Shown: positions 2,219 through 20,044, counted from the first letter of the stretch. The stretch: DNA of 55,316 bases from Sphingomicrobium sp. (GCA_035540655.1 DATLGC010000163.1:1-55316), one strand, 5' to 3'. Translations and numbers: made by a program. The notes: generated from the sequence alone by a model not told the origin.

Positions 2219-3622
2219 GTGGCGGCCGACGAAATGCCCGCCTGGGTGCTGATCGCCTATCTCGTCGCCGGAGTGTGCTTCATCCTCGCGCTGCGCGGGC
2301 TGTCGCATCCCGAAACCAGCAGGGCAGGCAACCGAATCGGGATGACGGGCATGGCCATTGCGGTCATCGCCACCCTGGCGTCCCACGACCTCGCCTCGAT
2401 CCCCGAGATCGCCGCCGCGATCGCCATCGGCGGCACGATCGGCCTGGTCATCGCCCGACGCATCCAGATGACGGCCATGCCGCAGCTGGTCGCCGCCTGC
2501 CACAGCCTGGTCGGAATGGCCGCGGTTCTGGTCGGTGCGGCCGCCTACCTCAATCCCGGCGCCTATGGGATTTTGGGCCCGGACGGCATCTACCAGGTCA
2601 CCCGGGTCGAACTGGGCCTCGGCGTGGCGATCGGCGCGATCACCTTCTCGGGTTCGGTCATTGCCTTCCTCAAGCTCAACGGCAACATGTCGGGAAGGCC
2701 GATCCTGCTGCCCGCGCGGCATGTGATCAACCTTGGAACGATTGCCGCCATCCTCGGCCTGATCGGCTATTTCACTTTCGACCAGAGCCCGTGGGTTTTC
2801 GTCACCATCGCCGCTTTGTCGTTCGTCATCGGCTTCCTGCTCATCATTCCTATCGGCGGCGCCGACATGCCGGTCGTCATCTCGATGCTCAACAGCTATT
2901 CGGGATGGGCGGCGGCGGCGATGGGCTTCACGCTGCACAATACGGCGATGATCATCACCGGCGCGCTGGTCGGCAGCGCCGGCGCAATCCTCTCCTACAT
3001 CATGTGCCGGGGAATGAACCGGAGCTTCATTTCGGTGATCGCCGGCGGCTTTGGCGGCGAGGCGATCGCCGGCGGGGGCGAGGCGATCGACCGGCCATGG
3101 AAGCGCGGCTCGGCCGAGGACGCGGCGTTCATGCTCGCCCAGGCCGAGCAGGTCATCGTCATCCCGGGCTACGGAATGGCGGTCGCCCAGGCGCAGCATG
3201 CGCTTCGCGAAATGGCCGATATCCTCAAGGAAAAGGGCGTCCGGGTGAAATATGCGATTCATCCGGTGGCGGGCCGGATGCCGGGGCATATGAACGTTCT
3301 TCTGGCCGAGGCGAACGTGCCCTATGACGAGGTGTTCGAGCTGGAGGATATCAACTCCGAATTCTCCCAGACCGACGTCGCCTTCGTCATCGGCGCCAAC
3401 GACGTCACCAATCCGTCGGCGAAGACCGACAAGAGCTCGCCGATCTACGGAATGCCGGTGCTCGACGTCGAAAAGGCGCGGACCGTATTGTTCGTCAAAA
3501 GGTCGATGGGCGGGGTCGGCTACGCGGGCGTGGATAACGAGCTATTCTACCGCGATAACACGATGATGCTGCTTGCCGACGCCAAGAAGATGGTCGAGGA
3601 AATCGTCAAGAGCCTAGATTGA
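2219..3622 (+). CDS. pntB: NAD(P) transhydrogenase subunit beta
   Basis: IGGADMPVVISMLNSYSG, PGYGMAVAQAQ, HPVAGRMPGHMNVLLAEA motifs; GTG 2219 is the likely start. Confidence 0.95.
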   Translation: MAADEMPAWVLIAYLVAGVCFILALRGLSHPETSRAGNRIGMTGMAIAVIATLASHDLASIPEIAAAIAIGGTIGLVIARRIQMTAMPQLVAACHSLVGMAAVLVGAAAYLNPGAYGILGPDGIYQVTRVELGLGVAIGAITFSGSVIAFLKLNGNMSGRPILLPARHVINLGTIAAILGLIGYFTFDQSPWVFVTIAALSFVIGFLLIIPIGGADMPVVISMLNSYSGWAAAAMGFTLHNTAMIITGALVGSAGAILSYIMCRGMNRSFISVIAGGFGGEAIAGGGEAIDRPWKRGSAEDAAFMLAQAEQVIVIPGYGMAVAQAQHALREMADILKEKGVRVKYAIHPVAGRMPGHMNVLLAEANVPYDEVFELEDINSEFSQTDVAFVIGANDVTNPSAKTDKSSPIYGMPVLDVEKARTVLFVKRSMGGVGYAGVDNELFYRDNTMMLLADAKKMVEEIVKSLD

Positions 3623-3693
3623 GTCGGCTTCGGTTCAGCAAGGCTCGAGCAGGATTCCGGTTCGGGTCTTGGCACGGTGAGAGGGACGGGCAC

Positions 3694-4410
3694 TTGCGCA
3701 AGCTTGGAATCATCGGCGGGACCAGCTGGTCGTCCACCGCGCTTTATTACGAGCATATCAACCGCGGAATCGCCCAGCGGCTCGGCGGACTGCATAGCGC
3801 CCGGCTGGTGATCGAAAGCCTCGATCTCGCGCCCGTGGCGGAAAAGGAGCTGTCGGGCGACTGGGACGACGTCGCCCAGATCCACCTCGAGGCCGCCCGG
3901 CGCCTGGAATCGGCCGGCGCGGACGGGGTGATCATCACTTCGAACACCGGCCACAAGGTATATGACGCAGTGTCCGCCGAAATCGGCGTTCCGATGCTCC
4001 ACATCGCCGACGCGACCGCCGATAAGCTCGTCGCCGACGGCCGCAGCCGGGTCGCCCTGCTCGGCACCCGCTTCACGATGACCGAGCCGCATGTCCGAAG
4101 CCGCCTCGAGAGCCGCCGAATCGCGCTGGCGCCGGTCGATGTCGGCTGGACCCGCGAGGTCGACCGGATCATCTTCGAGGAGCTTGCCGCCGCCCGGGTG
4201 GTCCGCGACAGCCAGCGCAAATTGAAGACCTTGATCGTCGAGCTTGCCCGCCAGAAGGTCCAGGCGGTCGTGCTCGGCTGCACCGAGCTGGTGCTTGCCG
4301 TCGATACCCGAGCCAACGTCATTCCCGTTTATGACACGACCGCGATCCACGCTCGCGCAGCCGTCGAGTGGATGCTCGCCGACGAAGAGCAGTCGAGGGC
4401 GGCTGCCTGA
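3694..4410 (+). CDS. Aspartate/glutamate racemase family protein (YgeA/RacX-like)
   Basis: LGIIGGTSWSSTALYY..RLGGLHSA and LGCTEL motifs; likely TTG start at 3694. Confidence 0.9.
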   Translation: MRKLGIIGGTSWSSTALYYEHINRGIAQRLGGLHSARLVIESLDLAPVAEKELSGDWDDVAQIHLEAARRLESAGADGVIITSNTGHKVYDAVSAEIGVPMLHIADATADKLVADGRSRVALLGTRFTMTEPHVRSRLESRRIALAPVDVGWTREVDRIIFEELAAARVVRDSQRKLKTLIVELARQKVQAVVLGCTELVLAVDTRANVIPVYDTTAIHARAAVEWMLADEEQSRAAA

Positions 4411-4476: not shown

Positions 4477-5628
4477 TTGGACATAAGAGCTAGCGACGCA
4501 TTCCTTGCCGACACGCTGCGCGCGCCGCCGGCTGCGTGGCCAGCCGGGCGGGACGGGGAGGGGGCCTCCGACCGGCTGTTCGAGCGGGTCTGCTACCACG
4601 GTATTGCCGGACTGCTGATCGATATTGGTGGCGTCGGCCCGTGCTGGCCGCACGAACTTCGTCGCCGCATCCACGGCCATGCGATCGGCCAGGCGATGTG
4701 GGAGGCCCGCCATCAGGCCGAGCTGGCGCGACTGCTTGGCGCACTTGCCGAGCGCGACCTCGAAGCGATCCTGCTCAAGGGCACTGCAATTGCCTATGAC
4801 CTCTACGGGACTCCTTCTGCCCGGCTTCGCGGGGACAGCGATTTACTGGTTCGCGAGGACCAGCTGGGAGAAGTCCGGCAGGTTCTGCGTGCGCTTGGCT
4901 GCGTCCGTCATCTCAGCGGAAGGCCGCTGCCCGACCGGCTCGAGCTTCAGGAAAGCTGGGCGATCGAGGCGCCGGGTTCCCGGCAGCTGATCGATCTCCA
5001 CTGGTCCGCGCTCAATTCGCTGGCGCTTCGCAATGTGTTGCGTTTCGATCAGATCCGGTCCGCCCTGATGCCCTTGCCCCGGCTGTCAAAGGACGCGGTC
5101 GCCGCCGATCGCCCGATCTTGCTCCTGCACACCTGCCTTCACCGGGCGATGCACTGCGTTTCACCCTATTTCGTCGATGGAGTGACTTATTATGGGGGCG
5201 ACCGGCTGATCTGGCTGTATGACATCCGGCTGCTGGCGGCCGCGTTGAGCGAAGAACAGTGGGAAGCGTTTCTGGTCCTTGCCCATCACACGGGCACGTC
5301 GGCGCCCTGCCGTGAAGGCCTTTCAATGGCTAAACTGCGACTTGGCAGCAGAGTGCCCGACGCGGTCATGGCCAGACTTGCCAGTGGCGAGAGAAGCAGC
5401 GCTAGCAGCTATTTGCGGGGAGGACAGTTGCGGCGATCATCGATGGATGTCCTCGCCGTGCCCGGCTTACGGGACAAGCTTCGATTGATCGGCGGCCGGC
5501 TGTTTCCCGGAGGCGCGTTCCTGAGGGCGAAATATCCGCGCATGGCGCGCATGCCGATCGCCATCCTGCAAGCGCGGCGATTTGCCGACATGCTTCGCGA
5601 CCGGCCGCGGCAAGGCAGTGGCCAATGA
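4477..5628 (+). CDS. Nucleotidyltransferase family protein (NTP_transf_5-like), lasso-cluster associated
   Basis: ILLKG..LY..PSARLRGDSDLLV, IDLHW and RLIWLYDI motifs typical of this family. Confidence 0.85.
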   Translation: MDIRASDAFLADTLRAPPAAWPAGRDGEGASDRLFERVCYHGIAGLLIDIGGVGPCWPHELRRRIHGHAIGQAMWEARHQAELARLLGALAERDLEAILLKGTAIAYDLYGTPSARLRGDSDLLVREDQLGEVRQVLRALGCVRHLSGRPLPDRLELQESWAIEAPGSRQLIDLHWSALNSLALRNVLRFDQIRSALMPLPRLSKDAVAADRPILLLHTCLHRAMHCVSPYFVDGVTYYGGDRLIWLYDIRLLAAALSEEQWEAFLVLAHHTGTSAPCREGLSMAKLRLGSRVPDAVMARLASGERSSASSYLRGGQLRRSSMDVLAVPGLRDKLRLIGGRLFPGGAFLRAKYPRMARMPIAILQARRFADMLRDRPRQGSGQ

Positions 5629-5644
5629 GCCGCCGAGGGCTCGA

Positions 5645-7531
5645 TTGAGCGGCATCTGCGGCATCCTCCGCCTGGACGGCGGTCCGGTTACTGCGCCCGA
5701 AATCCGGGCGATGATCGGGCCGCTGAAGCGCCGTGGCCCTGACGGCGCGAATGTTTGGCTCGGCGACGGCGTTGCCCTTGGCCACGCGCTGTTAGCGACG
5801 ACCCGCGAGGCGGCGGCGGAGCAGCTTCCGCTGGCCCACGAAAATAGCCAGTGCGTGATCACCGCCGATGCCCGTATCGACAACCGAGACGAGCTTGCCG
5901 CGGAGCTTGGGCTAAATCTTAGCGAGCGAATGATCGGCGACGGCGAGCTGATCCTCCTGGCTTACCTCAAATGGGGCGAGAATTGTGTCAAGCATTTCCT
6001 GGGCGATTTTGCCTTCGCCATCTGGGACGGTCGCACACGGCGGCTGTTCTGCGCCCGCGATCAGGTCGGCATGCGCCAGCTCATCTACTGCCACCTTCCA
6101 GGCAATCTCTTCTTGTTAGCCACAGAGCCGAGGGCGGTTATCGCACACGCTTCCGCGCCGCGCGAGATCAATGAAGGGCGGATTATCGATTACCTAGAAA
6201 ACTTGGGCGGCTTCGATCTTGTAGAGACCTTTTACAAAGGTGTGTTTCGGTTGCCTCCGGCTCACCTTCTGGTCGTCGACCAGCAACGCCTGTCCGTCCG
6301 CCAGTACTGGTTCCTCCAACCAGAAAACGAATTGAAGCTGGGGTCTGACGAAGCCTATTCCGAAGCTTTCCTCGACGTCTTTCAACAGGCTGTCCGCAGT
6401 AGGCTTCGGAGTTCTGGGCCGGTGGGCGCGATGCTGTCCGGCGGAATTGATTCGGGGAGCGTTGCTGCGGTGGCGGCGAGGCAGCTTGCTGCGACTCACA
6501 AGGGTCCGTTGCAAACCTTTTCAGGGGTAGGACCGGACCCGTCCTCCTGCATCGAAACGCGAACGATCCGCGCCGCGCTGACAATTTCGGGGATCGAGCC
6601 GGAGCTCGTCAGCCTCGCGAGCCTCGATGGATATATTGAGGAGCTGGCTCAGCTCACCCGCTGCATTGACGAACCGACCGACGGCCAAATGACCCTTCTT
6701 CGGGTCGTGTACCTCGCGGCCAACCGATCAGGCATCAAGGTGGTGCTTGACGGCGTCGGTGGGGACACCGTCCTTTCGGCAGGCAATCACGTGGCACGGC
6801 TGCTTCGCCGAGGATGGGTGACTGAAGCCATACGGGAGGCCCGCGGGGAACAATCGTTTTGGGGACATCAACATCCAGCCCACAGGGCGTTCGCCCTAGG
6901 GGCATGGCGTGCATTCGTTCCGAAGGGAATTCGCCACGTTAGACAAAATGCAATCGCGGCAATCCGGGACCGAATCGATCACGGAGCCCACATTAGTGCT
7001 GGGTTATTCAGCAATGCGAGGGAGCGTAAGCGCCGCTGGCGCCAACACTTAACGCCCTTCGATTCCACCGCTCGAGATGAGCGGGCACTGCTTATCCGCC
7101 ATCCGTACCTGACAATCGGGCGAGAAGCGTACGACCGCGTCGCATCGGCTCTTGCAATCGAACCGAGGGATCCGTTTGTCGATCTCCGCCTTGTTCGCTT
7201 TTCACTGGCGCTCCCTCCGGAGCAGCTGCAATCGCGCGGCTGGCCAAAGCTGATCCTTCGCAAGGCAACGGCTGGCCTTCTTCCCGAAGAAGTGCGCTGG
7301 CGCCCGGGCAAAGAGCATCTAGGCTGGTCGTTCACCCGTGCTCTGTTCGCGTCTCGCTGCTGGTCAGAAAAACTTGACGGGCACCCCAGGGAAACTATTT
7401 CGCGTTTCGTTGCTTTAGATCAGATCGAGTCCGTCCAACGGAAGTGCGGGGACTCGAAAGCTTTTGTCGATTGGGTCAATGCCGTGTACCTGAGCTTATG
7501 GTTCGATTCCGTGAACGGAGGGAGGATTTAG
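5645..7531 (+). CDS. Lasso peptide cyclase (asparagine synthetase-like, C protein)
   Basis: Likely start MSGICG (Ser where Ntn glutaminases have the catalytic Cys); RGPDG, GDFAFAIWD, ARDQVG, LSGGIDS ATP motif, DGVGGD, RDPFVD, KLILR..LLPEEVRWRPGK; flanked by precursor, RRE and B2 genes. Confidence 0.9.
   Translation: MSGICGILRLDGGPVTAPEIRAMIGPLKRRGPDGANVWLGDGVALGHALLATTREAAAEQLPLAHENSQCVITADARIDNRDELAAELGLNLSERMIGDGELILLAYLKWGENCVKHFLGDFAFAIWDGRTRRLFCARDQVGMRQLIYCHLPGNLFLLATEPRAVIAHASAPREINEGRIIDYLENLGGFDLVETFYKGVFRLPPAHLLVVDQQRLSVRQYWFLQPENELKLGSDEAYSEAFLDVFQQAVRSRLRSSGPVGAMLSGGIDSGSVAAVAARQLAATHKGPLQTFSGVGPDPSSCIETRTIRAALTISGIEPELVSLASLDGYIEELAQLTRCIDEPTDGQMTLLRVVYLAANRSGIKVVLDGVGGDTVLSAGNHVARLLRRGWVTEAIREARGEQSFWGHQHPAHRAFALGAWRAFVPKGIRHVRQNAIAAIRDRIDHGAHISAGLFSNARERKRRWRQHLTPFDSTARDERALLIRHPYLTIGREAYDRVASALAIEPRDPFVDLRLVRFSLALPPEQLQSRGWPKLILRKATAGLLPEEVRWRPGKEHLGWSFTRALFASRCWSEKLDGHPRETISRFVALDQIESVQRKCGDSKAFVDWVNAVYLSLWFDSVNGGRI
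7521..7525 (+). promoter_or_regulatory. Shine-Dalgarno (GGAGG) of the lasso precursor, inside the last cyclase codons
   Basis: GGAGG lies 7 nt before ATG 7533. Confidence 0.8.
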
Positions 7532-7532
7532 A

Positions 7533-7670
7533 ATGACTGGTAAGCGCGAGCGTAAAGTGTATTCTTCACCGACGCTGGTGAGATATGGTGATTTGGCCGG
7601 GATCACGGCAGGTGGCGTTGGCTCGGTGGTCGAAACAGGCGGTGGTAACACTAACAAGAAACCCGGTTAA
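7533..7670 (+). CDS. Lasso peptide precursor, 45 aa: MTGKRERKVYSSPTLVRYGDLAGITA|GGVGSVVETGGGNTNKKPG
   Basis: Hand-translated. Leader motif YxxPxLxxxGxxxxxT, Thr at -2, core starting with Gly1 and Glu at position 8, strong SD, directly after the cyclase. Confidence 0.92.
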   Translation: MTGKRERKVYSSPTLVRYGDLAGITAGGVGSVVETGGGNTNKKPG

Positions 7671-7688
7671 GCCGGCCGGTTCAGTAGG

Positions 7689-8603
7689 TTGCAGAGCACC
7701 GAGAGGCGCCGCGATTGCGGAGCCTTTAATCGAGCTTCGGCGCTCGCGGAGAGTCATAACTGGTCACTTTTGGTCGCGGCAAACCCATGCGTCGCCGGGG
7801 AGTTTATGCCCGTCGACATGGCGAGTCAGCCGGGTTTTCTACTCGGACGTGATTTAAACAAGTGCTCCCGGTTCCTCGTTTCGTTTCCCAACCTTGCGGA
7901 TTTCGAAGTTGATTGTCGCGAAAGAACCGTAAGCATATTCGAACATCATTCAGGTGCTAGCGAGCAAACGATCCAGCACCTCTTGCTGGATCAACTCCTG
8001 CCCCGGTTATTGGCATGTGCTGGCGATCTTGTGGTCCACGCTGCGGGCTTCGCCACAGTAACAGGTTCGGTGCTTCTGACCGGGCTGTCAGGGAAGGGGA
8101 AATCCACTCTGGCCGCCAGCTTTCACGCCGCCGGACATTTGTTGTTAGGAGACGATGCCATGATCGTCCACGCGGCACTCGGGGCGGTTTCTTGCCGCTC
8201 CGTCTATCGAAGCCTGCGTCTCCACCGGGACTCGATCGAAGCGGTGCTGCCAGGAAAGCGAGAACTCGCGCCCGTTGCGGAGCACACCGATAAGCAAAAT
8301 GTCATAGACCTTGGTCCGTCGCCTGAGGTTGCCAACGAGCAGCCTGTTAGGGCAGTTTACTGCCTTGGGGAGCACAGTGATACGATCCGGGTCAACAGAA
8401 TGTCTCCGGGCGAAGCATGCATGGCGCTTGTCGAACATAGCTTCTGGTTAGACCCGGCAGATCTCGAGCAAACGAAATCTCGTCTTATAACTGCCAGCGA
8501 AGTTGCGAAAGGCGTTCCCGTCTTTAATGTTGCGTACCCACGCGATTATGGCTCGCTGCCGCGGCTGCGACAAATCATCCTAGGCGGTCATGATATTCAT
8601 TAA
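7689..8603 (+). CDS. HPr kinase-like P-loop kinase (lasso kinase type)
   Basis: VHAAG..LLTGLSGKGKSTLA..LLGDD (His, Walker A, DD signature); start uncertain. Confidence 0.85.
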   Translation: MQSTERRRDCGAFNRASALAESHNWSLLVAANPCVAGEFMPVDMASQPGFLLGRDLNKCSRFLVSFPNLADFEVDCRERTVSIFEHHSGASEQTIQHLLLDQLLPRLLACAGDLVVHAAGFATVTGSVLLTGLSGKGKSTLAASFHAAGHLLLGDDAMIVHAALGAVSCRSVYRSLRLHRDSIEAVLPGKRELAPVAEHTDKQNVIDLGPSPEVANEQPVRAVYCLGEHSDTIRVNRMSPGEACMALVEHSFWLDPADLEQTKSRLITASEVAKGVPVFNVAYPRDYGSLPRLRQIILGGHDIH

Positions 8604-8634
8604 AATCAGCTTCGCGGGCTTCTGAGGCGCACTT

Positions 8635-9789
8635 GTGCCTAAAGGATATAATATCTTTATGTACGGTCGGATGGTGACCTCCGAGCCGCGCATGTCGGCC
8701 TACGCGGAGGCGCTGAGACAGGCGATAAGCCCGGGCTGCACGGTCTTCGACATCGGCGCCGGGCCTGGGGTCTTCTCGCTGCTTGCCTGCCGATATGGAG
8801 CCGGCCGGGTGGTGGCGATCGAGCCGGATGATTCCGTTGAGCTCCTGCGCCCCCTGGCAGAAGCCAACGGCTGCCTCGACCGGATCGAAATCTTCAAGGG
8901 CCTGTCGACCGACTTTGCCCCGGTGGGCCGAGCGGACGTAATCGTCTCGGATCTGCGCGGCGCTTTGCCGCTGTTCGAGCACCATATTCCAGCAATCAAG
9001 GACGCGAGGGAGCGTTTGCTGGCGTCGGGCGGCACGCTCATCCCGGCGCGCGATACGATCCGCATCGCACTCGCCCAGAATGCGAAAAACTATTCCGATC
9101 TTTGTGTGGAGCCCTGGCTCCAAAATCGGTTTGGACTCGACCTCTCTGCAGGCCACCAGTTCACGGCGAACCTGCTCGCGCAGGTCGAGCCGGAGCACAC
9201 CAAGCTATTGTCGGAATCCGCCGATCTCGCGGTGCTCGACTATTATTCGGTCACGGACCCCGATTTTTCGGGAGACGTGGAGCTCGAAGTCGAGGTGGAA
9301 GGCGCCCTTCACGGGCTGCTGATGTGGTTCGATTCCGAGCTTGCGCCCGGTATCGGCTTTTCCAACGCGCTGGACCAGCCGCCACAAATATACGGGCGAG
9401 TCTTCATTCCTCTCGAACAGGCGCTCGACGTCGCGCCTGGCGACCGAATCCAGGTGAACCTAGTCGCGAAGCTCGTCGGCGGCAGCTACGTTTGGGCCTG
9501 GAACAGCAGGCTGGTCCGGCCCGGCGACTCCGAGCCCGAGGCAAGCTTTCGGCAGTCGACCTTCCTTGGAAAGGTGATTGACCCCGATGCACTGCGGGTG
9601 CGTGCATCGACCTTCGTTCCGCCGCGGTCGGATGATCACGAGGTCGACCGTTTCTGCCTTTCGCTGATTGATGGGCGGCACAGTCTCGGCGAACTCGCCG
9701 ACAAGCTTCGGGAAAATTTTCCCGCTCGATTCACCCACGCCTCGCAGGCCCTCGACCATGTCACGCGATTGACGGGTCGTTATCGATAG
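8635..9789 (+). CDS. SAM-dependent methyltransferase with PRMT-like fold and C-terminal winged-helix-like tail
   Basis: RMSAYAEAL, VFDIGAGPG, VVAIE, ADVIVSDLRGALPLFE (double-E loop equivalent), ARERLLASGGTLIP, LHGLLMWFD (PRMT beta-barrel); tail LSLIDGRHSLGELADKL. Start may be ATG 8659. Confidence 0.8.
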   Translation: MPKGYNIFMYGRMVTSEPRMSAYAEALRQAISPGCTVFDIGAGPGVFSLLACRYGAGRVVAIEPDDSVELLRPLAEANGCLDRIEIFKGLSTDFAPVGRADVIVSDLRGALPLFEHHIPAIKDARERLLASGGTLIPARDTIRIALAQNAKNYSDLCVEPWLQNRFGLDLSAGHQFTANLLAQVEPEHTKLLSESADLAVLDYYSVTDPDFSGDVELEVEVEGALHGLLMWFDSELAPGIGFSNALDQPPQIYGRVFIPLEQALDVAPGDRIQVNLVAKLVGGSYVWAWNSRLVRPGDSEPEASFRQSTFLGKVIDPDALRVRASTFVPPRSDDHEVDRFCLSLIDGRHSLGELADKLRENFPARFTHASQALDHVTRLTGRYR

Positions 9790-9829
9790 CTAAACAACTC
9801 GTTTTTAACCGCGCTAGGGCGGTGGAGGC

Positions 9830-10111
9830 GTGATGACGGACATTCTGCGGCAGAAGCTCGAGCCGACCGGGGACGCGGTGGAAAGCCGAGTGGGGGACGA
9901 AACCGTTCTCCTTCACCTCAAGCGTGGAACTTACTACGGCCTTGACCCCCTGGGAACCAGAATCTGGTCGTTCCTCAAGGAGGGCAAGGAGCCGCAGGAG
10001 ATCTGCCAGCTTGTGGCTGCGGAATTCGAGGTCGAGCACGAAACGGTGGCGGACGATGTTCGGCGCTTCCTGTCCGATCTGAAGGCGAACGATATCGTTG
10101 TCGAACTGTAA
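9830..10111 (+). CDS. PqqD-family RiPP recognition element (lasso B1/E protein)
   Basis: VGDETVLL..GTYYGLDPLGTRIW..EFEV..DVRRFLSDL; about 90 aa; GGAGG SD. Confidence 0.92.
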   Translation: MMTDILRQKLEPTGDAVESRVGDETVLLHLKRGTYYGLDPLGTRIWSFLKEGKEPQEICQLVAAEFEVEHETVADDVRRFLSDLKANDIVVEL

Positions 10112-10125
10112 GTCGGAGCCAGCCG

Positions 10126-10581
10126 ATGGGCATGTTCGCCAAGGCCGCGAAACTGGGCATTGGCGAGTGGCGTGACGTCGGTCGTGCGGTCATCGAACTG
10201 GCGATCGCACGAGCCTGGATGGCGTTCGCGGACCCGGAAAAATTGCTTGCCACAGCCGCACCGTCGGGGGGAGCGGCGGACGATTGCGCGAGCGACCATG
10301 ACGTGGCGCTCGTCCGCCGCGTTTCGGTGGCCATCGGCCGCGCCGGCGCTCGGGTGCCGTGGCGTTCGGATTGCCTCGTCCAGGCGCTCGCTGCCCAACG
10401 ATGGCTGAGACTAGGGGGGGTCCAAAGCGACCTGTTTATCGGTGTTCGCCCCGCCAATGGTGAAGGGGTCGACGCGCACGCCTGGCTGGTCAGCAGCGGA
10501 TCGGTGGTAACCGGGGGTGACGTCAGCGGCTTTACGCCTTTGGTGACTCCCGATGTGCTGGCGGCGCTCGCCTCGCGCTGA
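10126..10581 (+). CDS. Lasso peptide leader peptidase B2 (transglutaminase-like)
   Basis: DCLVQALA..LFIGV..AHAWL Cys/His motifs. Confidence 0.92.
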   Translation: MGMFAKAAKLGIGEWRDVGRAVIELAIARAWMAFADPEKLLATAAPSGGAADDCASDHDVALVRRVSVAIGRAGARVPWRSDCLVQALAAQRWLRLGGVQSDLFIGVRPANGEGVDAHAWLVSSGSVVTGGDVSGFTPLVTPDVLAALASR

Positions 10582-10632: not shown

Positions 10633-12579
10633 ATGGACCGGACGCCCGCCAATCGCCCTGACCATCCCGGCGCCGAAGATCGATTCAACGAGGACAAGGC
10701 CACTTACGCGGTTCGCGGCACCGAGGCTCCGGACCTGGACAAGGGCATCGCCGCTATCAGAGAGGTGTGGAAAACATTGCCGGCGCGCCCCGGCGTGTAC
10801 CGGATGCAGGATTCTCGCGGCGAGGTTCTTTACGTCGGCAAGGCGCGGGCGCTCAAGAGCCGGGTTTCAACATACACGCAGATTGCGCGCCTGCCCAAGC
10901 GGCTCCAGCGAATGGTCGCCCAGACCCGCTCGCTGACCATCATAACAACGCGCACCGAAGCGGAGGCGTTGCTGCTCGAGGCGCAGCTGATCAAGCGCTT
11001 TCGGCCGCCCTACAACGTGCTGCTGCGCGACGACAAAAGCTTCCCATTCATCCTGCTTCGCGAGGACCACGCCTATCCGCGGGTTCAGAAGCATCGCGGG
11101 GCAAGGCGCTCGAAGGGCCAATATTACGGACCGTTCGCAAGCGCCGGTTCGGTTACCCGAACGCTCAACGCCCTTCAAAAGCTGTTCCTTCTGCGGAGCT
11201 GTTCGGACAGCTTTTTCGCCAATCGGTCCCGGCCGTGCCTGCTCTACCAGATCAAGCGCTGCTCGGCCCCGTGCGTCGGTCGAATCGGCGAGGAGGATTA
11301 TGCCGAGCTGGTCGACGACGCCAAGGCGTTTCTCGCCGGCCGCTCGACCGGCGTCCAAGCCCGCCTCAGCCGCTCGATGGCGGATGCGGCAGAGCGTCAG
11401 GATTACGAGCTGGCGGCCGTCTATCGCGATCGCCTCCGGGCGCTGACCTATATCCAGGGCAGCCAGTCGGTGCATGCCGAGGGCCTTGGCGATGCCGACG
11501 TATTCGCGCTCGCCTGCAAGGGCGGGGCGATGTCGATCCAGGGTTTCTTCATCAGAGGCGGCCAGAACTGGGGGCATCGCGCTTTCTTTCCCGCGCACAC
11601 CGCCGAGGTCCCCGAGGCCGAAGTGCTGTCAAGCTTCCTCGTCCAGTTCTACGAGGAGATGCCGCCGCCGCGGCGCATCCTGGTCGATCGCAAGCTCGGG
11701 GACCAGGAATTGCTCGAAGAGGCGCTGTGCGAGCGCGCCGGGCGCAAGGTCACGATCGAGCAGCCAAGGCGGGGCGCCCGCGCCAAGCTGATCGATCAGG
11801 CCAAGCGCAATGCCGAGGAGGAGCTCGACCGCCGGCTGGCCGAGACCAGCAGCCAGGCCAAGGTGCTCCGCGAACTTGCCGAGACATTCGAACTGACCGA
11901 GCCTCCCAGGCGCATCGAAGTCTATGACAACAGCCACATCATGGGCACGAACCCGTCCGGAGCGATGATCGTCGCCGGACCCGAAGGCTTTCGCCGAAAC
12001 AGCTATCGCAAGTTCAACATCAAGCGTGCGGAGACTCGGCCGGGCGACGATTTTGCAATGATGCGCGAAGTGCTCGAGCGGCGCTTCGCCCGGCTGGAAA
12101 AGGAGGATCCGGATCGCTCGTCGGGCGAATGGCCGGACCTGATCCTGATCGACGGCGGCAAGGGTCAGCTGTCGGCAGCTTGCGAGATGATGGAGGACGC
12201 CGGGGTCCACGATATCCCGGTCGTCGCGGTGTCGAAGGGCCCCGACCGCAACGCCGGGCGCGAGACATTCCACCTGCCCGGCGGCCGGGAATTGACCCTT
12301 CCGCCCAATTCGGCATTGCTCTTTTACCTTCAGCGGCTGCGCGACGAGGCGCACCGCTTCGCCATCGGCGCGCATCGGCAGAAGCGGGCAAAAGGTCTGA
12401 CGACCTCCAGCCTCGACGACGTCCCGGGCATCGGCCCGTCGCGCAAGCGGGCGCTATTGATGCATTTCGGAACGGCTCGCGCCGTCAAGGGCGCGGCGCT
12501 GGAGGACCTCGAGCGGGCTCCGGGCATCAGCCGGGCAATGGCGCGTCAGCTCTACGATTATTTCCACCCGCGGGGCTGA
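10633..12579 (+). CDS. uvrC: Excinuclease ABC subunit C
   Basis: GIY-YIG (PGVYRM..LYVGKA), [29 protein letters not shown]-terminal HhH. Confidence 0.97.
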
Positions 12580-13789: not shown

Positions 13790-14941
13790 ATGGCAATCCC
13801 CGAAGAGCGGCCACGGCCCGACCGGCGAACCATCGTCGTCTCCGCGAACTCGTCGTGGAACATCGTCAATTTCCGGATGGGCCTGCTCGAGGGCCTCGCC
13901 CGCAGCGGCTTTCGGCCGATCGTCATCGCGCCGGCCGACAGCTACAGCGAAGCCATCACCGAGCGGGGGTATGAGTTCCGCGCTCTGCCGATGAGCCGGT
14001 CGGGAATGAACCCGGCCGCCGATGCCCTTCTGCTGCTTAGATATTATCGACTGATCCGCGATTGCGGCGCAGCTGCCTATCTCGGTTTCACGATCAAGCC
14101 CAACATCTATGGTTCGATCGCCGCCCGGCTGGCTGGAGCCGAGCGGATCAACAACGTCAGCGGTCTTGGCACGGCCTTCCTGCAACGGGCATGGCTAGAA
14201 CGCCTGGTAAGCGGACTGTACCGACTCGCATTCCGCGGCTCGCACACTGTTTTTTTTCAGAATTCGGACGACTGCAATCTGTTTGTCGAAAAAGGAATCG
14301 TCACAGCTCGGCAGGCAAAACTGGTGCCTGGGTCGGGCGTCGACCTCGATCGCTTCAGGCCAGCTTCGGACGAGCCCGGCGGCCTACCGACCTTCCTGTT
14401 CATTGGCCGGCTGCTCCGCGACAAGGGTGTTAGGGAATATGCCGAGGCGGCTCGGCTTTTGCGCTCGAGGCTGCCGGAGGCGCGCTTCCAGATTCTCGGC
14501 GATCTGGACCCCGGCAACCGGACCGGGATCGATCGCATCGAGTTGCAGTCGTGGATCGATGAGTCCGGTATCGAATATCTGGGGCATTCGGAAGACGTCA
14601 GGCCGTATGTCGCCATGGCGACCGCGGTCGTCCTGCCTTCCTATCGGGAGGGCATGCCAAGAGTGCTGCTGGAAGCCGCGGCAATGGCCAAGCCCTTGGT
14701 GGCGGCGGATGTTCCGGGCAGCCGCGAGATAGTCGTCGACGGTGAGACCGGCCTTCTATGCACCGTGCGCGATGCTGCATCACTGGCCTTGGCGATGGAG
14801 CGGATCGCCGCGATGCCTACGCCGGTTCGGCGCGCGATGGGCGAGGCCGCCCGGACAAAAGTTCAAGCCGAATTCAGCGAAGCGCTGGTAGTCGACAGGT
14901 ATCTCGCAACGCTGCTCGAGGTTGCCGGTTCGGACCGATGA
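13790..14941 (+). CDS. Glycosyltransferase family 4
   Basis: TIKPNIYG, FQNSDD, GSGVD, RLLRDKG, PSYREGMPRVLLEA. Confidence 0.92.
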   Translation: MAIPEERPRPDRRTIVVSANSSWNIVNFRMGLLEGLARSGFRPIVIAPADSYSEAITERGYEFRALPMSRSGMNPAADALLLLRYYRLIRDCGAAAYLGFTIKPNIYGSIAARLAGAERINNVSGLGTAFLQRAWLERLVSGLYRLAFRGSHTVFFQNSDDCNLFVEKGIVTARQAKLVPGSGVDLDRFRPASDEPGGLPTFLFIGRLLRDKGVREYAEAARLLRSRLPEARFQILGDLDPGNRTGIDRIELQSWIDESGIEYLGHSEDVRPYVAMATAVVLPSYREGMPRVLLEAAAMAKPLVAADVPGSREIVVDGETGLLCTVRDAASLALAMERIAAMPTPVRRAMGEAARTKVQAEFSEALVVDRYLATLLEVAGSDR

Positions 14942-15032
14942 GCATTGCGCCCGGCCGATCGTCGGGAACCGGGGGCGGCGCTGACTGTTGCCGCCGGACA
15001 GTTTTCGGAAGGGGTTGGATAGCCGGTTCGTG

Positions 15033-15815
15033 ATGTTTGGCCTTTTTCGTAAGAACTTGTCTCAACCCAAGGCACCCAGGGGCCACCGGGCCTACGCGAT
15101 TGGCGACATCCACGGCCGGCTCGACCTTCTCGACCAGCTGCTGGAGCGGGTCGAGCGCGATAATGCCGAACGAGGCCGGGCTGAGACCCATCTCGTCTTC
15201 CTTGGCGATCTCATCGATCGCGGGCCGAGCTCCTGCCAGGTGGTCGAGCGCCTGCGGACGTATCAGCCGAGAAAAATGAGCACGGTCTTCCTGATCGGCA
15301 ATCACGAAGAAGTTTTGCTCCGGCTGCTTGGCGGCGAGAAAGGTTTGTTGTCGAGCTGGCTGCTGTTCGGCGGCGCCGAATGCTTGCGCAGCTATGGCAT
15401 CGATCCGGACAAGGTGGACCCGGCGGACGAAACCACAGCGCTCAGGCAAGTCGCCAGGGCAATCCCGTCAAAACATGCCGATTTCCTGAAGAGCTTTGCC
15501 GACACCTTTCGTTTCGGTGATTATCTGTTCGTCCATGCCGGAATCCGCCCGGGGGTCGAGCTCGATGCCCAGGATTCGACCGATCTGCGGTGGATTCGCC
15601 ATCCCTTCCTGGAAGACGAGAGCGATCATGGCGTGACCGTCGTGCACGGCCATACGATTTCGCCGGGGATTGACGAGCGACAAAACCGGATCGGCATCGA
15701 TACGGGCGCCTATCGAACAGGGATTCTGACGGCGCTCGGCATCGAAGGCGCCGATCGCTGGGTTTTCAGTACGGCCTCGGAACCATCTTGCGCAGACCGC
15801 GTATCGATTGATTAG
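15033..15815 (+). CDS. Metallophosphoesterase (PrpA-like Ser/Thr phosphatase family)
   Basis: GDIHG, GDLIDRG, GNHE, HAG, HGHT, IDTGA motifs. Confidence 0.92.
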   Translation: MFGLFRKNLSQPKAPRGHRAYAIGDIHGRLDLLDQLLERVERDNAERGRAETHLVFLGDLIDRGPSSCQVVERLRTYQPRKMSTVFLIGNHEEVLLRLLGGEKGLLSSWLLFGGAECLRSYGIDPDKVDPADETTALRQVARAIPSKHADFLKSFADTFRFGDYLFVHAGIRPGVELDAQDSTDLRWIRHPFLEDESDHGVTVVHGHTISPGIDERQNRIGIDTGAYRTGILTALGIEGADRWVFSTASEPSCADRVSID

Positions 15816-15893
15816 GTTCAAAATGGAGGCTAGTGGGTGCCCATCCGGCGTGATTTGGGGGAAGGTTCGCGCATCGAGTGGCGAGGTGTATCC

Positions 15894-16610
15894 GTGACTG
15901 GCGTTAATTCTGTTCGGCCCGCATCGCTCCTTCCTGTTTTGCTGATCGTATTCCTTGGTTTGATATTGTCCGCATGCGCCGACCGTCGCGGCGGCCCGAT
16001 TCCCTATGATCCGAGCGGTTTTGGCACGCCCGACCCGATCGGCCTCACGACGTTGGACGCAAACTACAAGATCGCACCCATGGACACGCTGACCATCCGC
16101 GTGTTCCGAATGCCCGAGCTGTCCGGCGACTATGAAGTCGACCTGACCGGCCATGTGTCGCTGCCGCTGATCGGCAATGTCAGGGCGGCCGATTTCACGA
16201 CCGCCGAGTTGGATGCGGCCCTGACCAGCAAATTCGGCGAGCGTTACCTCGAGAATCCGGACATCAGCGTTGGAATCAAATCGTCGACCTTGCGGACGGT
16301 GACCGTCGATGGCGCCGTCACCAGGTCCGGCTCATTCCCAGTTGCCGGCTCCATGAGTCTCATGCAAGCGGTGGCATTGGCCGGCGGCACTCGCGAAGAT
16401 GCAAATGCGAGGCGGGTCGCGATTTTCCGCCAGATCGGGGGCCAGCGCCAAGCCGCGGCTTTCGACCTTACGAGCATTCGGCGCGGAGAGATGCAGGATC
16501 CGCCCGTTTTCGCGGGCGATATCGTCGTCGTCGACGGGTCGTCGATCAAGGCAACGCAGAAGCAGATTCTGAATAGTCTCCCGATCCTATCAATTTTCAG
16601 ACCCTTCTGA
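15894..16610 (+). CDS. Polysaccharide export outer-membrane lipoprotein (Wza-like)
   Basis: Lipobox LSAC; YKIAPMDTL..SLPLIG (PES domain); SLBB repeat; start uncertain. Confidence 0.88.
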   Translation: MTGVNSVRPASLLPVLLIVFLGLILSACADRRGGPIPYDPSGFGTPDPIGLTTLDANYKIAPMDTLTIRVFRMPELSGDYEVDLTGHVSLPLIGNVRAADFTTAELDAALTSKFGERYLENPDISVGIKSSTLRTVTVDGAVTRSGSFPVAGSMSLMQAVALAGGTREDANARRVAIFRQIGGQRQAAAFDLTSIRRGEMQDPPVFAGDIVVVDGSSIKATQKQILNSLPILSIFRPF

Positions 16611-16632
16611 GTTGCCTGACGCAGGGAGCGGC

Positions 16633-18846
16633 ATGAACAACAATCTACCAGTCGCCAAGGACGAAGGCACGTGGGTCGTCGACCGCTACGGGCCCGGCAA
16701 CCGGCTCCACCCCGATGAGCCGGGACGGACGGCGCCGAGTGTGCTCGATCTCGCTGCGCTGGTGCGGATCATTACTCACTGGCGCTGGCTCATTTTGAGT
16801 GCGGTCATCCTTGGCATTGCCGCCGCGGTCATCATCACTTTGCTGACGACGCCAATGTACCGCGCTAAAGTGACACTTGAGGTGAACCCGCCGAGCGTTG
16901 AAATTCTTGACGAGAATACGCGCGACCGGGGGATTGCGCAGAGTAATTGGGATTTCGTGGCGACCCAGGTCGGGCTTCTGGCGAGCCGTAGCGTCGCGGA
17001 GCGTGCTGCTCAGGATTTGAATCTCGCCAACAATCCTGAATTCGTCGGCACTGGAGGCGATCCTTCGACCCGCCTGAACATTGCTGCAAGTCGTGTAGCT
17101 GGCGGTCTTCGGGTTCGGGCGCCCGACCAGGGGCAGCTCATCGAGTTCACCTATGAGTCGGAATCTCCGCAACTGGCAGCCCAGGTGGCCAACGCGATCG
17201 CCGAGGCGTTCATCAATTCCAATCTTCAGCGTCGATACGAGGCGTCCGCCTATGCGCGAACTTTTCTCGAGCGTCAGATTGCGAAGACCCGAGGGGACCT
17301 TGAAAGATCGGAACGCCAGCTGGTCAGCTATGCCCAGGCGCAAGGCATCATCAACACCGCGTCCGGGGACTCGGGGGCACCGGGCAGCGACGCCAACTCC
17401 CTCCAGGGACAGTCGCTTGTCGCTCTCAATGATGCGCTAGCGACGGCGACCGCCCGTCGAGTTGCGGCCGAGGGGGCATATCGGGCCGCCAGCGCCGCGG
17501 GGGCAACCACCGAAGTGACCGAAGGCTCCCAGCACCTTCGCCAGGCGCGCGCCGCTCTCGAGGCCGAGTATCAAGAAAAGCGGACGATGATGAAGCCCGA
17601 GCATCCCGAGATGCTGAGCCTGCGCTCGCGCATCGACGAGCTCGGGCGGCAGATTTCGCGGGAGACTTCGCAGGTGACGTCGGCCAGGGTCAATTCGCTG
17701 GCTGCCGAATATCGCGCAGCCGTGGCTGCCGAGCGGGCTTTGCAAGGGCGCGTTGCGGCGCTCAAGGGCTCGGTCCTCGATCTGCGCGGAAGGAGCATTC
17801 AATATACGATCCTGCAGCGCGACGTGGACACCAACAGGGCGCTCTATGATGCCCTTCTCCAACGGTACAAGGAGGTTGGCGTGGCCGGCGGCATAGGCGC
17901 CGCGCCTATTTCGATCGTCGACCGGGCCGAGCCGCCGGGGGGGCCGTTCAAGCCTAACCTGCCGCTTAATCTCGCCTTCGGACTGGGCCTGGGATTGATC
18001 GGCGGTGTCGGAGCGGCCGTGGGCCTCGAGTTCGTCAACGATACGATCAAATCTCGGGACGACGTACGAAACAAGCTTGGGTTGGCCTGTCTCGGTGCTG
18101 TCCCAAAGACCGTCGGCAAGACCAGCTTCGTCGACGACCTTCGCGATCCCGGCTCGATGGTTTCCGAAGCTTATTCGGCGGTCGTGGCGGCACTTCGCTT
18201 CAGCACCGACAGTGGCGTGCCCAAGGCCCTGCTGGTGACCAGCGCACGACCCTCTGAGGGCAAGTCGTCGAGCGCCCTGGCGCTCGCCCAGAATTTCTCG
18301 CGCCGCGGCAAGAAGGTTCTCTTGATCGATGGTGACCTGCGCAAGCCGACGTTCAAGACCGCGTCGGAAAAGACGGGCCTGACGCAATTGCTGACCAATG
18401 AGGATTCGGTCGGCAATCACATCGTACAGACACAGTATGAAAATCTCTGGCTCCTCCCCTGCGGGCCACTTCCGCCAAATCCGGCTGACCTATTGTCGAC
18501 CAACCGGTTCCAGCATGTGCTCCGGGAGGCTTCATCCCATTTTGACCTGGTGATCATCGATGCCCCACCCACCTTGGGGCTGGCCGACGCACCGCTGCTT
18601 TCAGCGGTTACCGGCAATGTGATGTTCGTGATCGAGGCCGGGAAAACGAGAACCTCGGCAGCGCGCGAGGCGATCGAGCGGATCGAGTCGTCGGGCGCCC
18701 ATATCATCGGCGCGACCCTGACCAAGGCGACCGAATCCGGTGGCTATGGCTACAAGAACTACGGCTATGGCTATGGCTATGGTTACGGCAAGGTCGGAAC
18801 AAAGCAGAACGAGATCCAGATGATTCCGCAAGGGTCGGATAGCTGA
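16633..18846 (+). CDS. Polysaccharide co-polymerase / tyrosine autokinase (Wzc-like)
   Basis: Two TMs around a coiled periplasmic region; SEGKS Walker A, LLIDGDLRKP, IIDAPP; C-terminal Tyr cluster. Confidence 0.92.
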   Translation: MNNNLPVAKDEGTWVVDRYGPGNRLHPDEPGRTAPSVLDLAALVRIITHWRWLILSAVILGIAAAVIITLLTTPMYRAKVTLEVNPPSVEILDENTRDRGIAQSNWDFVATQVGLLASRSVAERAAQDLNLANNPEFVGTGGDPSTRLNIAASRVAGGLRVRAPDQGQLIEFTYESESPQLAAQVANAIAEAFINSNLQRRYEASAYARTFLERQIAKTRGDLERSERQLVSYAQAQGIINTASGDSGAPGSDANSLQGQSLVALNDALATATARRVAAEGAYRAASAAGATTEVTEGSQHLRQARAALEAEYQEKRTMMKPEHPEMLSLRSRIDELGRQISRETSQVTSARVNSLAAEYRAAVAAERALQGRVAALKGSVLDLRGRSIQYTILQRDVDTNRALYDALLQRYKEVGVAGGIGAAPISIVDRAEPPGGPFKPNLPLNLAFGLGLGLIGGVGAAVGLEFVNDTIKSRDDVRNKLGLACLGAVPKTVGKTSFVDDLRDPGSMVSEAYSAVVAALRFSTDSGVPKALLVTSARPSEGKSSSALALAQNFSRRGKKVLLIDGDLRKPTFKTASEKTGLTQLLTNEDSVGNHIVQTQYENLWLLPCGPLPPNPADLLSTNRFQHVLREASSHFDLVIIDAPPTLGLADAPLLSAVTGNVMFVIEAGKTRTSAAREAIERIESSGAHIIGATLTKATESGGYGYKNYGYGYGYGYGKVGTKQNEIQMIPQGSDS
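18742..18789 (+). repeat. Imperfect GGCTAT tandem repeat encoding the Wzc Tyr cluster (GYGYKNYGYGYGYGYG)
   Basis: Directly visible hexamer repeat. Confidence 0.85.
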
Positions 18847-18934
18847 TCGCACCAGCGGGCGGGGGGCAGTTATTCGCGCGATCCTGATCCTGATCCTGAC
18901 AATACTTGTCGCCGGCCATTCAGTCCGATCGGCG

Positions 18935-20044
18935 ATGGTTGCGGAATATGCCTCGAGCGACCTGGAGAAGGCCGGACGGTTCTGGCCTGGGCATCCCAAT
19001 GTGACATTGAATCGGGCACTGGCGGGGATTGCCGGGGCGGCCGCAGCCGGTGAATCGCCGGGTGAGACCCTGGTGGCGTCGGGCATTGCGACGTCGCGCA
19101 AGGCGCCGCTCGCAGCCGGTCCTTTCCTGATCCGAGGTGCTCAGGCCCAGCTAGCGGGCAACCGGCCCGCTGCGGAGCGGTCCTTCCTCGAAGCGCGACG
19201 CCGCGATCCAAGGGCTCCAGCCACGCGCTATTTCCTCGCGGAATATTATCTGCAGGCCGGCCGCATCGGTGAAGGCCTCCAGGAACTATCGGTCCTTGCG
19301 AACCTGGTTCCCGGAGGAGCAAATAATCTCGCGCCATTTCTTGCCACCTTTGCCCGAACGAAGGGCGCGAGCGCGCAGCTGCGGCAGCTATTCCATTCCG
19401 ATCCGCACCTCGAAGCGAGCGTGCTGGGCGAGCTGGCCAAGGACGTCGGCAACGCCCGCCTGATTCTGTCAATCGCCAGCCCGCGGGCATTCGCCCAGGA
19501 CCGTCGCGGCGAATGGCTTCCGTCCCTGCTCGACGGACTAGTCGGGAAAGGCGATTTTGCCGCCGCCCATCAACTTTGGCGGCGCGCTTCCGGAGTGCGC
19601 AGTCATCAGGGGATCTTCGATCCGGCGTTCCAGGGCAATCCCGCTCCGCCGCCGTTCAACTGGAATTTCGCGGCCGGTGGCGTAGGCTTTGCCGAACCTA
19701 CCGGTGACGGCGGTCTTCGGGCGATCTTCTACGGCCGGGATAATGCGGTGCTTGCCAGCCAGACCTTGTTGCTCCGGCCGGGCCGGTACCGACTGTCGAT
19801 GAAGGCGAGCGGATCCCGCGATTCAGCCAGCCTGATAAGATGGTCGATCACCTGCCTTCCGAGCGGGACTCAACTGCTGTCTCTGCCACTTTCGGTCAAT
19901 CCGGGCGAAACTCTGTCGGGCAGCTTCGAAGTGCCCCAGGGGTGCCGAGCGCAGCGGTTGGAGCTGGTCGGCACGGCACCCGAATTCCCGCAACAGGCCG
20001 ACGTCATCGTGTCGGATTTGCAGCTCGCTGGACCGGGCGGTTGA
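18935..20044 (+). CDS. TPR-like protein with C-terminal beta-sandwich, associated with wza/wzc (true start probably upstream)
   Basis: Helical repeat-like segment (FLEARRRDPRAPATRYFLAEYY); PPPFNW motif; open frame extends to about 18839 through a hydrophobic stretch. Confidence 0.7.
   Translation: MVAEYASSDLEKAGRFWPGHPNVTLNRALAGIAGAAAAGESPGETLVASGIATSRKAPLAAGPFLIRGAQAQLAGNRPAAERSFLEARRRDPRAPATRYFLAEYYLQAGRIGEGLQELSVLANLVPGGANNLAPFLATFARTKGASAQLRQLFHSDPHLEASVLGELAKDVGNARLILSIASPRAFAQDRRGEWLPSLLDGLVGKGDFAAAHQLWRRASGVRSHQGIFDPAFQGNPAPPPFNWNFAAGGVGFAEPTGDGGLRAIFYGRDNAVLASQTLLLRPGRYRLSMKASGSRDSASLIRWSITCLPSGTQLLSLPLSVNPGETLSGSFEVPQGCRAQRLELVGTAPEFPQQADVIVSDLQLAGPGG

Follow-up and report, generated by a model that had tools for sequence, protein, structure and literature searches.

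What does an enzyme with the fold of a protein arginine methyltransferase (PRMT) modify when it is encoded beside a lasso peptide core that contains no arginine? PRMTs are generally viewed as enzymes of eukaryotes with specificity for Arg. We analysed a 55,316-nt stretch of Sphingomicrobium sp. DNA (hereafter the window, i.e. the whole stretch), in which seven intact, co-directional open reading frames (ORFs) at 4477..10581 encode, in this order, a nucleotidyltransferase (NTase), a cyclase, a precursor, a kinase, a PRMT-fold methyltransferase, a recognition element (RRE) for peptides made on ribosomes and modified post-translationally (RiPPs) and a B2 leader peptidase; all features described below lie on the + strand. 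An initial annotation had placed these genes in this order between a racemase gene and uvrC and had interpreted them as a lasso cluster in which three genes (kinase, NTase and methyltransferase) serve tailoring. Both claims were borne out, the ORFs being unbroken and the parts being recovered by family and motif matches. The seven genes almost certainly form a class II lasso pathway and, as many related loci carry the same gene set, its presence here is not due to chance. The methyltransferase is the unusual part of this phosphorylated lasso cluster, and it is very probably a peptide-modifying enzyme.

The methyltransferase gene (8635..9789) is full length, and its product (METHYLTRANSFERASE) retains the columns that are invariant across the family alignment. 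Its best PDB matches were all PRMTs, by sequence (E 2e-20) as well as by structure, and a PRMT_C domain was found in the family search; no PCMT Pfam match was obtained at E 0.01. The structure model (pLDDT 91; Foldseek E 2e-25) matched PRMT2 (VIA Z 32.8, root-mean-square deviation 2.7 A, 308 residues), non-PRMT methyltransferases giving Z <=14, and the Rossmann and beta-barrel domains of PRMT1/2/3/8 and CARM1 were matched across residues 1-310 (Z 25-33, 17-22% identity). With these two domains and its S-adenosylmethionine (SAM) motifs, the protein has the PRMT fold that had been assigned to it from sequence.

The double-Glu loop and the THW loop are hallmark PRMT features, and both are rewired, as judged from an alignment to PRMT1 that was used to position them. 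The first Glu of the double-Glu loop is an Asp (D106) in 269/269 homologues, and an Arg (R108) follows two residues later in 249/269, i.e. the D106-x-R108 motif of the window enzyme. The window enzyme and 119/119 closest homologues retain the second Glu, which is found in only 30/150 distant representatives. THW was found in 0/269 homologues, [IV]-Y-G standing at that place. The window enzyme is further set apart from eukaryotic PRMTs by an extra C-terminal helical bundle (9550..9786), which is weakly PqqD/RRE-like: PqqD was the top match in three weak tests (Z 5.5 across 50 residues, vs Z 4.4 for lasso B1), Pfam PqqD was found in 22/56 family members at a loose threshold (E up to 1), and HHalign of the bundle against the RRE of the cluster gave 13.7%. 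Because the modelled bundle consists of helices only, the three-stranded sheet of an RRE being missing, we do not claim that it binds the leader.

The candidate substrate is a 45-aa precursor (7533..7670; MTGKRERKVYSSPTLVRYGDLAGITAGGVGSVVETGGGNTNKKPG; NF033521 19.3 bits, cutoff 19), the sole precursor of its type found in G000. Its 26-aa leader (7533..7610) carries Tyr-17, Pro-14, Leu-12 and Thr-2 with a spacing that is identical in related precursors, and the YxxPxL leader, Thr-2, Gly1, Glu8 and absence of Cys are those of a class II lasso precursor. The 19-aa core (7611..7667), with a predicted Gly1-Glu8 ring, contains Ser5 and Lys16/Lys17, is devoid of Arg, Met, Cys, Asp and aromatic residues, and ends in Gly; its tail offers no aromatic plug. 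The mass of the cyclised, unmodified core, calculated by hand in the initial annotation as about 1695.85 Da, was correct (recomputed 1695.854 Da). For comparison, 57 related cores were considered, each of them distinct and taken from a locus that encodes a close methyltransferase (the window's own clade), and 44/57 of them have a ring acceptor at position 8.

A core without Arg means that the enzyme cannot be methylating a core Arg. It might nonetheless be a true arginine methyltransferase acting on one of the three Arg of the leader, on a pathway protein or on the Arg tails of relatives: the PRMT fold is complete, and Arg occurs in 30/57 related tails, many of which end in Arg-Arg-Pro. Yet both Arg-binding motifs are changed, Arg is absent from 25/57 related cores as it is from the window core, and the distribution of tail Arg in a sister clade, given below, runs in the opposite direction. 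We regard an arginine target as highly improbable.

Evidence on the methyl acceptor comes from this sister clade of enzymes, which are 20-25% identical to the window enzyme, have a D-H-x-G loop and occur in related genera whose kinase-type lasso clusters are found with or without the methyltransferase. In a first set of loci (30 of 36 matches, plus four more), tail Met was present in 15/15 distinct cores with the enzyme and in 0/16 from kin clusters without it. Conversely, tail Arg was present in 16/16 cores without the enzyme and in 4/15 with it, the enzyme-free tails containing Arg plus mostly Phe, and 9/15 cores with the enzyme have no Lys or Arg anywhere. As far as sequences can tell, this pattern would exclude Arg and Lys as acceptors in the sister clade and points to S-methylation of Met, which is probably the reaction that these enzymes catalyse.

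The same comparison was repeated on a held-out set from two further genera, in which tail Met was found at 26/29 loci with the enzyme and at 1/4 without it. These counts leave out three loci already in the first set, L211, L216 and L222 (no precursor found), L223 (different arrangement, none found), and L203 and L208 (Cys-containing, neither enzyme in view). The single Met-free core, at L197 (G969), has as its neighbour an enzyme from which ~95 residues, the catalytic loop among them, are deleted in frame. When enzyme-free genomes of the first set were checked for a close enzyme copy elsewhere, none was found in 8/9. The ninth, G756, has a methyltransferase copy away from its Met-free main cluster: at L168 (G756:C2:1374000-1388000), 14 kb of DNA contain a Met-tailed second precursor next to the methyltransferase but no further lasso gene. 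The enzyme match at L168 contains two reported stop codons, so that this copy may be damaged; the lone pair may be processed in trans.

Within the clade of the window enzyme itself, the tails (n=57) contain Lys only in 22 cases, Met only in 18, both in 16 and neither in 1. Lys or Met is present in 56/57, whereas shuffling residues among tails gives a mean of 50.8 (p 0.004, for a residue pair picked after data inspection). Met and Lys account for 8.9% and 9.5% of tail residues, vs 2.1% and 2.6% in the seven window proteins, and aromatics for <1%. Met-free, Arg-free tails with Lys-Lys, as in the window, accompany each of the three nearest enzymes (73-80% identical), and the place taken by Met at L089 is taken by Lys at L090, with near-identical enzymes. 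Lys16 and Lys17 are the sole residues of the Lys/Met class in the window core, and a tail Lys is our predicted methylation target there, a call that we consider evenly balanced.

Alternatively, the whole family could be Met-specific, the window enzyme being idle or a relic and its product merely phosphorylated and capped. Met is enriched in the tails of both clades (26% sister, 8.9% own), the dead enzyme copy of L197 stands beside a Met-free core, and Lys-rich ends could themselves be natural plugs. This would, however, have to accommodate the 22/57 own-clade tails with Lys and no Met, which are scattered over many branches (13 tree changes) with intact loop motifs in the enzyme, as well as a window gene that is full length and keeps the family-invariant columns, and we find it rather improbable. 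The two Asn of the window tail (Asn13/Asn15), together with Asn in 35/57 own-clade tails, suggest another target, i.e. an Asn amide or a backbone amide as for the proteusin enzymes PoyE/AerE or the borosin enzymes, and AerE does use an Asp base (PMC9060474). In the sister clade, though, tail Asn occurs in 6/15 cores with the enzyme vs 10/16 without it, and AerE is GenN/PrmC-like and not described as PRMT-fold, which makes an amide target very improbable. A reading of AerE/PoyE as PRMT-fold enzymes was rejected.

Rather than being peculiar to the window genome, the gene set belongs to a large family found across many lineages. The family search gave 841 matches among 7999 scored candidates, the best 150 family clusters (50% identity) all scoring >370 bits, and the named sources of homologues are Sphingomonas alba, Pseudomonas sp. 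N040 and P. pohangensis. Linkage to lasso genes, which the initial annotation had suggested checking, was clear: a lasso-type neighbour was found at 75/80 metagenome loci (the best 80 of 173 confirmed loci), using profiles seeded with the window proteins and then iterated on the loci found. The five remaining loci are short contigs (1.2-2.5 kb), and a precursor was found on one of them. Among 12 loci of 17 kb, the cyclase, kinase, RRE and B2 were present in 12/12 and the NTase in 11/12, and the kinase adjoins the methyltransferase in 23/23 loci of at least 9 kb.

This adjacency bears on the main rival to a Met or Lys target, according to which the enzyme of the own clade methylates an anionic group irrespective of sequence, i.e. 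a phosphate or phospho-sugar installed by the kinase and NTase, or the C-terminal carboxylate (a StspM/LasF-like outcome reached with a different fold). One database protein, P0026, even fuses kinase and methyltransferase, with a linker that looks frameshifted; tail sequences vary widely; and the near-invariant Arg108 of the former double-Glu loop (249/269 homologues) would suit an anionic substrate. Such a target would nevertheless leave unexplained the co-variation of Met and enzyme in the sister clade, the complementarity of Met and Lys in the own clade and the lone pair at L168, and kinase clusters freely lose the methyltransferase. We therefore deem it unlikely.

The kinase (7806..8603, within an ORF from 7689; likely start ATG 7806) is of the HPr type. 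It matched PF07475 weakly and TIGR04352 with E 3e-14, below cutoff, and its motif H117-G132-K138-D155-D156 (304-aa ORF numbering) has the same spacing as H148-G163-K169-D186-D187 in BsfK. According to the parts available of the published account, this is the catalytic motif of BsfK, which phosphorylates ring Ser3 and is strict for core position 3 (PMC10368454). Ser/Thr is present at position 3 in 34/57 related cores and at position 3 or 5 in 47/57, and the Val3 and Ser5 pattern of the window core is common to L056, L059 and L161. With Val at position 3, Ser5 is predicted to be the likely phosphorylation site. Phosphorylation of a C-terminal Ser, the model carried over from known systems in the initial annotation, fails here, as the core ends in Gly and a C-terminal Ser occurs in 1/57 related cores; this residue was ruled out as phospho-acceptor. 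The NTase (4477..5628) is PsmN/BsfN-like (PF14907, NTP_transf_5, 107 bits, cutoff 31, E 1.4e-30), with its metal motif D120-x-D122 intact. PsmN is described, in the text available, as requiring D134/D136 and as needed for hexose addition onto phosphate (PMC6993621).

Taken together, these elements suggest a product with a Gly1-Glu8 ring, a phosphorylated and capped Ser5, and a methylated Lys16 or Lys17, a structure to which, judging from sequence comparisons, we give even chances of being right or wrong. The calculated neutral mass would be 1775.820 Da with the phosphate and 1937.873 Da with phosphate plus hexose, each methyl group adding 14.016 Da. The RRE would bind the YxxPxL leader, following known chemistry. 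The kinase would then phosphorylate ring Ser5 on the linear precursor in a BsfK-like manner and the methyltransferase would modify the tail of the linear precursor, the timing of both steps being inferred from PadeK, BsfK and StspM. The methyl acceptor would be a long unbranched tail side chain, i.e. a Lys nitrogen here and a Met sulfur in the sister clade. B2 would cut after Thr-Ala, the cyclase would close Gly1-Glu8 and thread the ring, and the NTase would cap the Ser5 phosphate with a hexose or a nucleotide, in a PsmN-like reaction. Methylation would yield a bulkier, fixed cation serving as plug in a tail without aromatic stopper. Unmodified pseudomycoidin is reported, in the portion of the source available, not to stay threaded, and tailoring was proposed as the lock (PMC6993621); given the <1% of aromatics in own-clade tails, a methylated Lys or a sulfonium is a plausible plug, although we hold the prediction that the methylated cation is the plug as tentative. 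The Arg/Phe tails of enzyme-free sister-clade clusters would fit a scenario in which a made cation takes the place of a natural, bulky one. More broadly, and with some reservation, the PRMT-fold branch might act as a lasso "plug builder", methylating Met S or Lys N according to lineage and locking the knot under a phosphorylated, capped ring.

Several observations weigh against this proposal. In the own clade, the Lys/Met pair was chosen post hoc, a tree-based test of it had too few pairs (p 0.25), the last five residues contain Lys/Arg as often as Lys/Met (51/57 each), and no active-site columns were found to separate Lys-only from Met-only loci beyond lineage. In the sister clade, whose low identity and different loop make any transfer to the window indirect, independent events are few: the first set provides 3/3 concordant pairs (p 0.25) and the held-out set ~3.5/4, with none opposite and a median p of 0.125, i.e. 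below significance, on quick and FastTree trees. Individual loci are also discordant, with the enzyme present and Met in the ring only at L187 and L190, tail Met at L193 in a genome where no enzyme was found, tail Met without adjacent enzyme at L164, L165 and L208 (Cys-containing; no kinase in the DNA examined), and no precursor found at L163. At L002, the enzyme is present with no lasso gene within 17.5 kb. To these must be added Arg108, discussed above, the strictness of BsfK for position 3 where the window core has Val, and the lack of an ABC exporter inside the cluster, unlike in many relatives. When G000 was scanned for a dedicated exporter, the best matches were 29-32% identical full-length, vs 44-67% among cluster-linked exporters; as the genome is 83% complete, the exporter is to be described as not found rather than absent.

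How far does this cluster depart from characterised ones? The published accounts compared here and below are taken from the parts of them available. The closest is bsf of Bradymonas sediminis FA350 (PMC10368454), which is Gram-negative and shares A, B1, B2, C, the kinase and the NTase as well as the YxxPxL leader, Gly1, the acceptor at 8 and the spacing of kinase residues. BsfK acts in the ring (Ser3) with the assistance of the RRE, whereas in-ring action would be by analogy in the window. The bsf cluster differs in having no methyltransferase in the account available, an ABC exporter D, Ile at -2 and Ser3; the Ser/Thr3 and Ile/Val-2 of bsf-type precursors are replaced here by Val3 and Thr-2. 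The mature bsf product has never been detected, nor has BsfN been characterised (PMC10368454). The pseudomycoidin cluster psm of Bacillus pseudomycoides similarly combines a kinase, a DxD NTase and a split B, but its C-terminal Ser is modified, an exporter is present and no methyltransferase is described in the text available (PMC6993621). Among the proteobacterial lasso kinases, SyanK of Sphingobium yanoikuyae has been characterised (PMC9266682, PMC8498205); it is of the HPr type with a His-Lys-Asp-Asp motif, and it comes with a separate B2 (SyanB2) in a sphingomonad (PMC9266682, PMC8498205, PMC10368454). The kinase and NTase motifs of the paeninodin, pseudomycoidin and Syan systems are present in the window (H117, K138, D155, D156; D120-x-D122). 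SyanK and the paeninodin-type PadeK/ThcoK differ in that they (poly)phosphorylate a C-terminal Ser, and the portions available of these papers mention no PRMT-fold enzyme (PMC9266682, PMC8498205, PMC10368454). The kinase, NTase and split B are therefore already known, a sphingomonad included, and contribute little novelty; the claim that their combination is unusual outside Firmicutes or in sphingomonads found no support, given SyanK, SyanB2 and the Bradymonas bsf cluster.

Among lasso methyltransferases, StspM/LasF (C-terminal ester) and the TceM/LihM-type PIMT homologues (aspartimide) likewise perform SAM-dependent tailoring, and are set apart by their descriptions as O-methyltransferases and PIMT homologues (PMC9266682); the window core moreover lacks Asp. 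The likeness to longipeptin A of Longimycelium tulufanense is of another kind, as this peptide carries an S-methyl-Met sulfonium in its tail, at a position equivalent to a plug (PMC10028836), which is the outcome predicted for the Met-tailed relatives of the window cluster. For its putative methyltransferase LopH, a resemblance to the SAM-binding domain of MTHFR is predicted, unlike the PRMT-fold window enzyme, and its cluster has P450s and, in the account available, no kinase or NTase (PMC10028836); the window core has no Met. RiPP S-methyltransferases are described as rare in a 2024 review of RiPP methyltransferases, LopH being the sole proposed Met enzyme, unverified, and the term PRMT is absent from that review (PMC11285071).

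No paper on a PRMT-fold lasso enzyme, and no characterised cluster with the same methyltransferase, was found in the literature searched, which covered few subscription papers; the string "PRMT" in the LassoPred paper denotes a file extension and was discarded. Of the suggestion that the cluster defines an undescribed, multiply modified class, the part that stood is the unusual methyltransferase, and the part that did not is the novelty of the kinase, NTase and split B, which are known; the gene set itself is widespread. If our proposal is true, a PRMT-fold enzyme acts on neither Arg nor, partly, nitrogen, in a triply modified lasso class. The rewired pocket, the small encoded substrate and the natural presence/absence variants would make a substrate change of the PRMT fold directly testable, and engineering could gain an enzyme that methylates Met S or Lys N in peptides. 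The system would also put to a second test the still open idea that some lasso peptides are kept threaded by tailoring rather than by bulky residues. What this analysis adds is the comparison of enzyme presence/absence with tail Met, the repeat of this comparison on held-out genomes, and L197, the exception with a dead enzyme.

The remaining class II lasso enzymes are all encoded in the cluster, i.e. an AsnB-like cyclase, an RRE and a Cys-His leader peptidase. The cyclase (5645..7531, within an ORF from 5582) contains PF00733 and GATase domains, and its likely start is TTG 5645, which matches homologue starts; Ser replaces the glutaminase Cys1, and NF033535 was the best model (504 bits, slightly below the cutoff of 525). 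The stand-alone RRE (B1) lies at 9830..10111 (PF05402, 68.8 bits, cutoff 23.4, E 5e-19). The transglutaminase-like leader peptidase B2 (10126..10581; PF13471; NF033537 70 bits, cutoff 33) has Cys83 and His118 matching homologue motifs.

The cluster is flanked by genes outside the pathway, namely an Asp/Glu racemase gene (3619..4410; PF01177) and uvrC (10633..12579). In a same-genus comparison (11 loci out of 16 genus matches), the racemase gene is followed directly by uvrC in 7/11 loci and the cluster genes were present in none of the 11, the seven-gene cluster being an insertion between the two; the racemase, adjoining uvrC in relatives without the cluster, was ruled out as a pathway epimerase. 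A close cyclase occurs in 3/150 genomes of the genus, one of the three being broken. The full cluster is also present in G257, a further genome of the genus, and L026 and L027 have it at the same site, adjoining uvrC. Third-position GC is 0.59-0.76 in the cluster genes vs 0.81-0.85 in pntB, the racemase gene and uvrC, with recO at 0.75, i.e. within the cluster range. A scan for promoters and terminators was uninformative (2 and 2 sites vs 1.3 and 6.4 expected), a plasmid search with the stretch gave no match, and no RNA run was present among the sequencing runs listed as carrying it. Four soil DNA runs match parts of the stretch through short pieces, with an identity of >=99% in nearly all of these, and none spans it. 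In the same genus, L160 (G854) carries a copy of the cluster in many fragments, reflecting decay or a noisy assembly.

Polysaccharide genes lie near several of these clusters. An exopolysaccharide locus (glycosyltransferase, phosphoesterase, export protein and chain-length kinase) is found at 13790-20044, 3 kb downstream of the window cluster, and L001, L029, L036 and L044 have clusters near apparent rhamnose-pathway and O-antigen-ligase genes, as judged by eye. Such neighbouring genes may supply a sugar donor.

Variants of the enzymes and of their surroundings were also encountered. One family member, P0239, is fused to a PhyH dioxygenase, hinting at further tailoring, as do related loci that include ones with two AsnB-like genes (L064, L076, L079). 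L019 (G195) has a different arrangement, with a TPR-containing PRMT-like enzyme near a kinase, a short precursor-like ORF, RREs, a cyclase, B2 and an NTase. Canonical-loop PRMT-like proteins, with the Glu loops plus THW or HW kept, were found at L101-L106, L108 and L110 with no lasso gene within ~1.5 kb; they are candidate bacterial arginine methyltransferases, L101 additionally carrying a SEC-C motif. In kin of the sister clade, L164, L165, L203 and L208 represent a distinct lasso type with the same leader and cores with at least two Cys, no kinase or methyltransferase being seen in the DNA examined at these loci.

Finally, some lasso precursors are fused in frame to a C-terminal Peptidase_S74 domain, as at L018:8428-8787 (Pfam E 4e-8). 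This fusion is present at 13/42 loci of the held-out set, i.e. at L194, which is L018 again, and at L188, L191, L192, L195, L198, L199, L201, L202, L205, L206, L210 and L214. Peptidase_S74 intramolecular-chaperone domains trimerise and cut themselves off, and such self-cleavage is predicted to free the C-terminus of the core.

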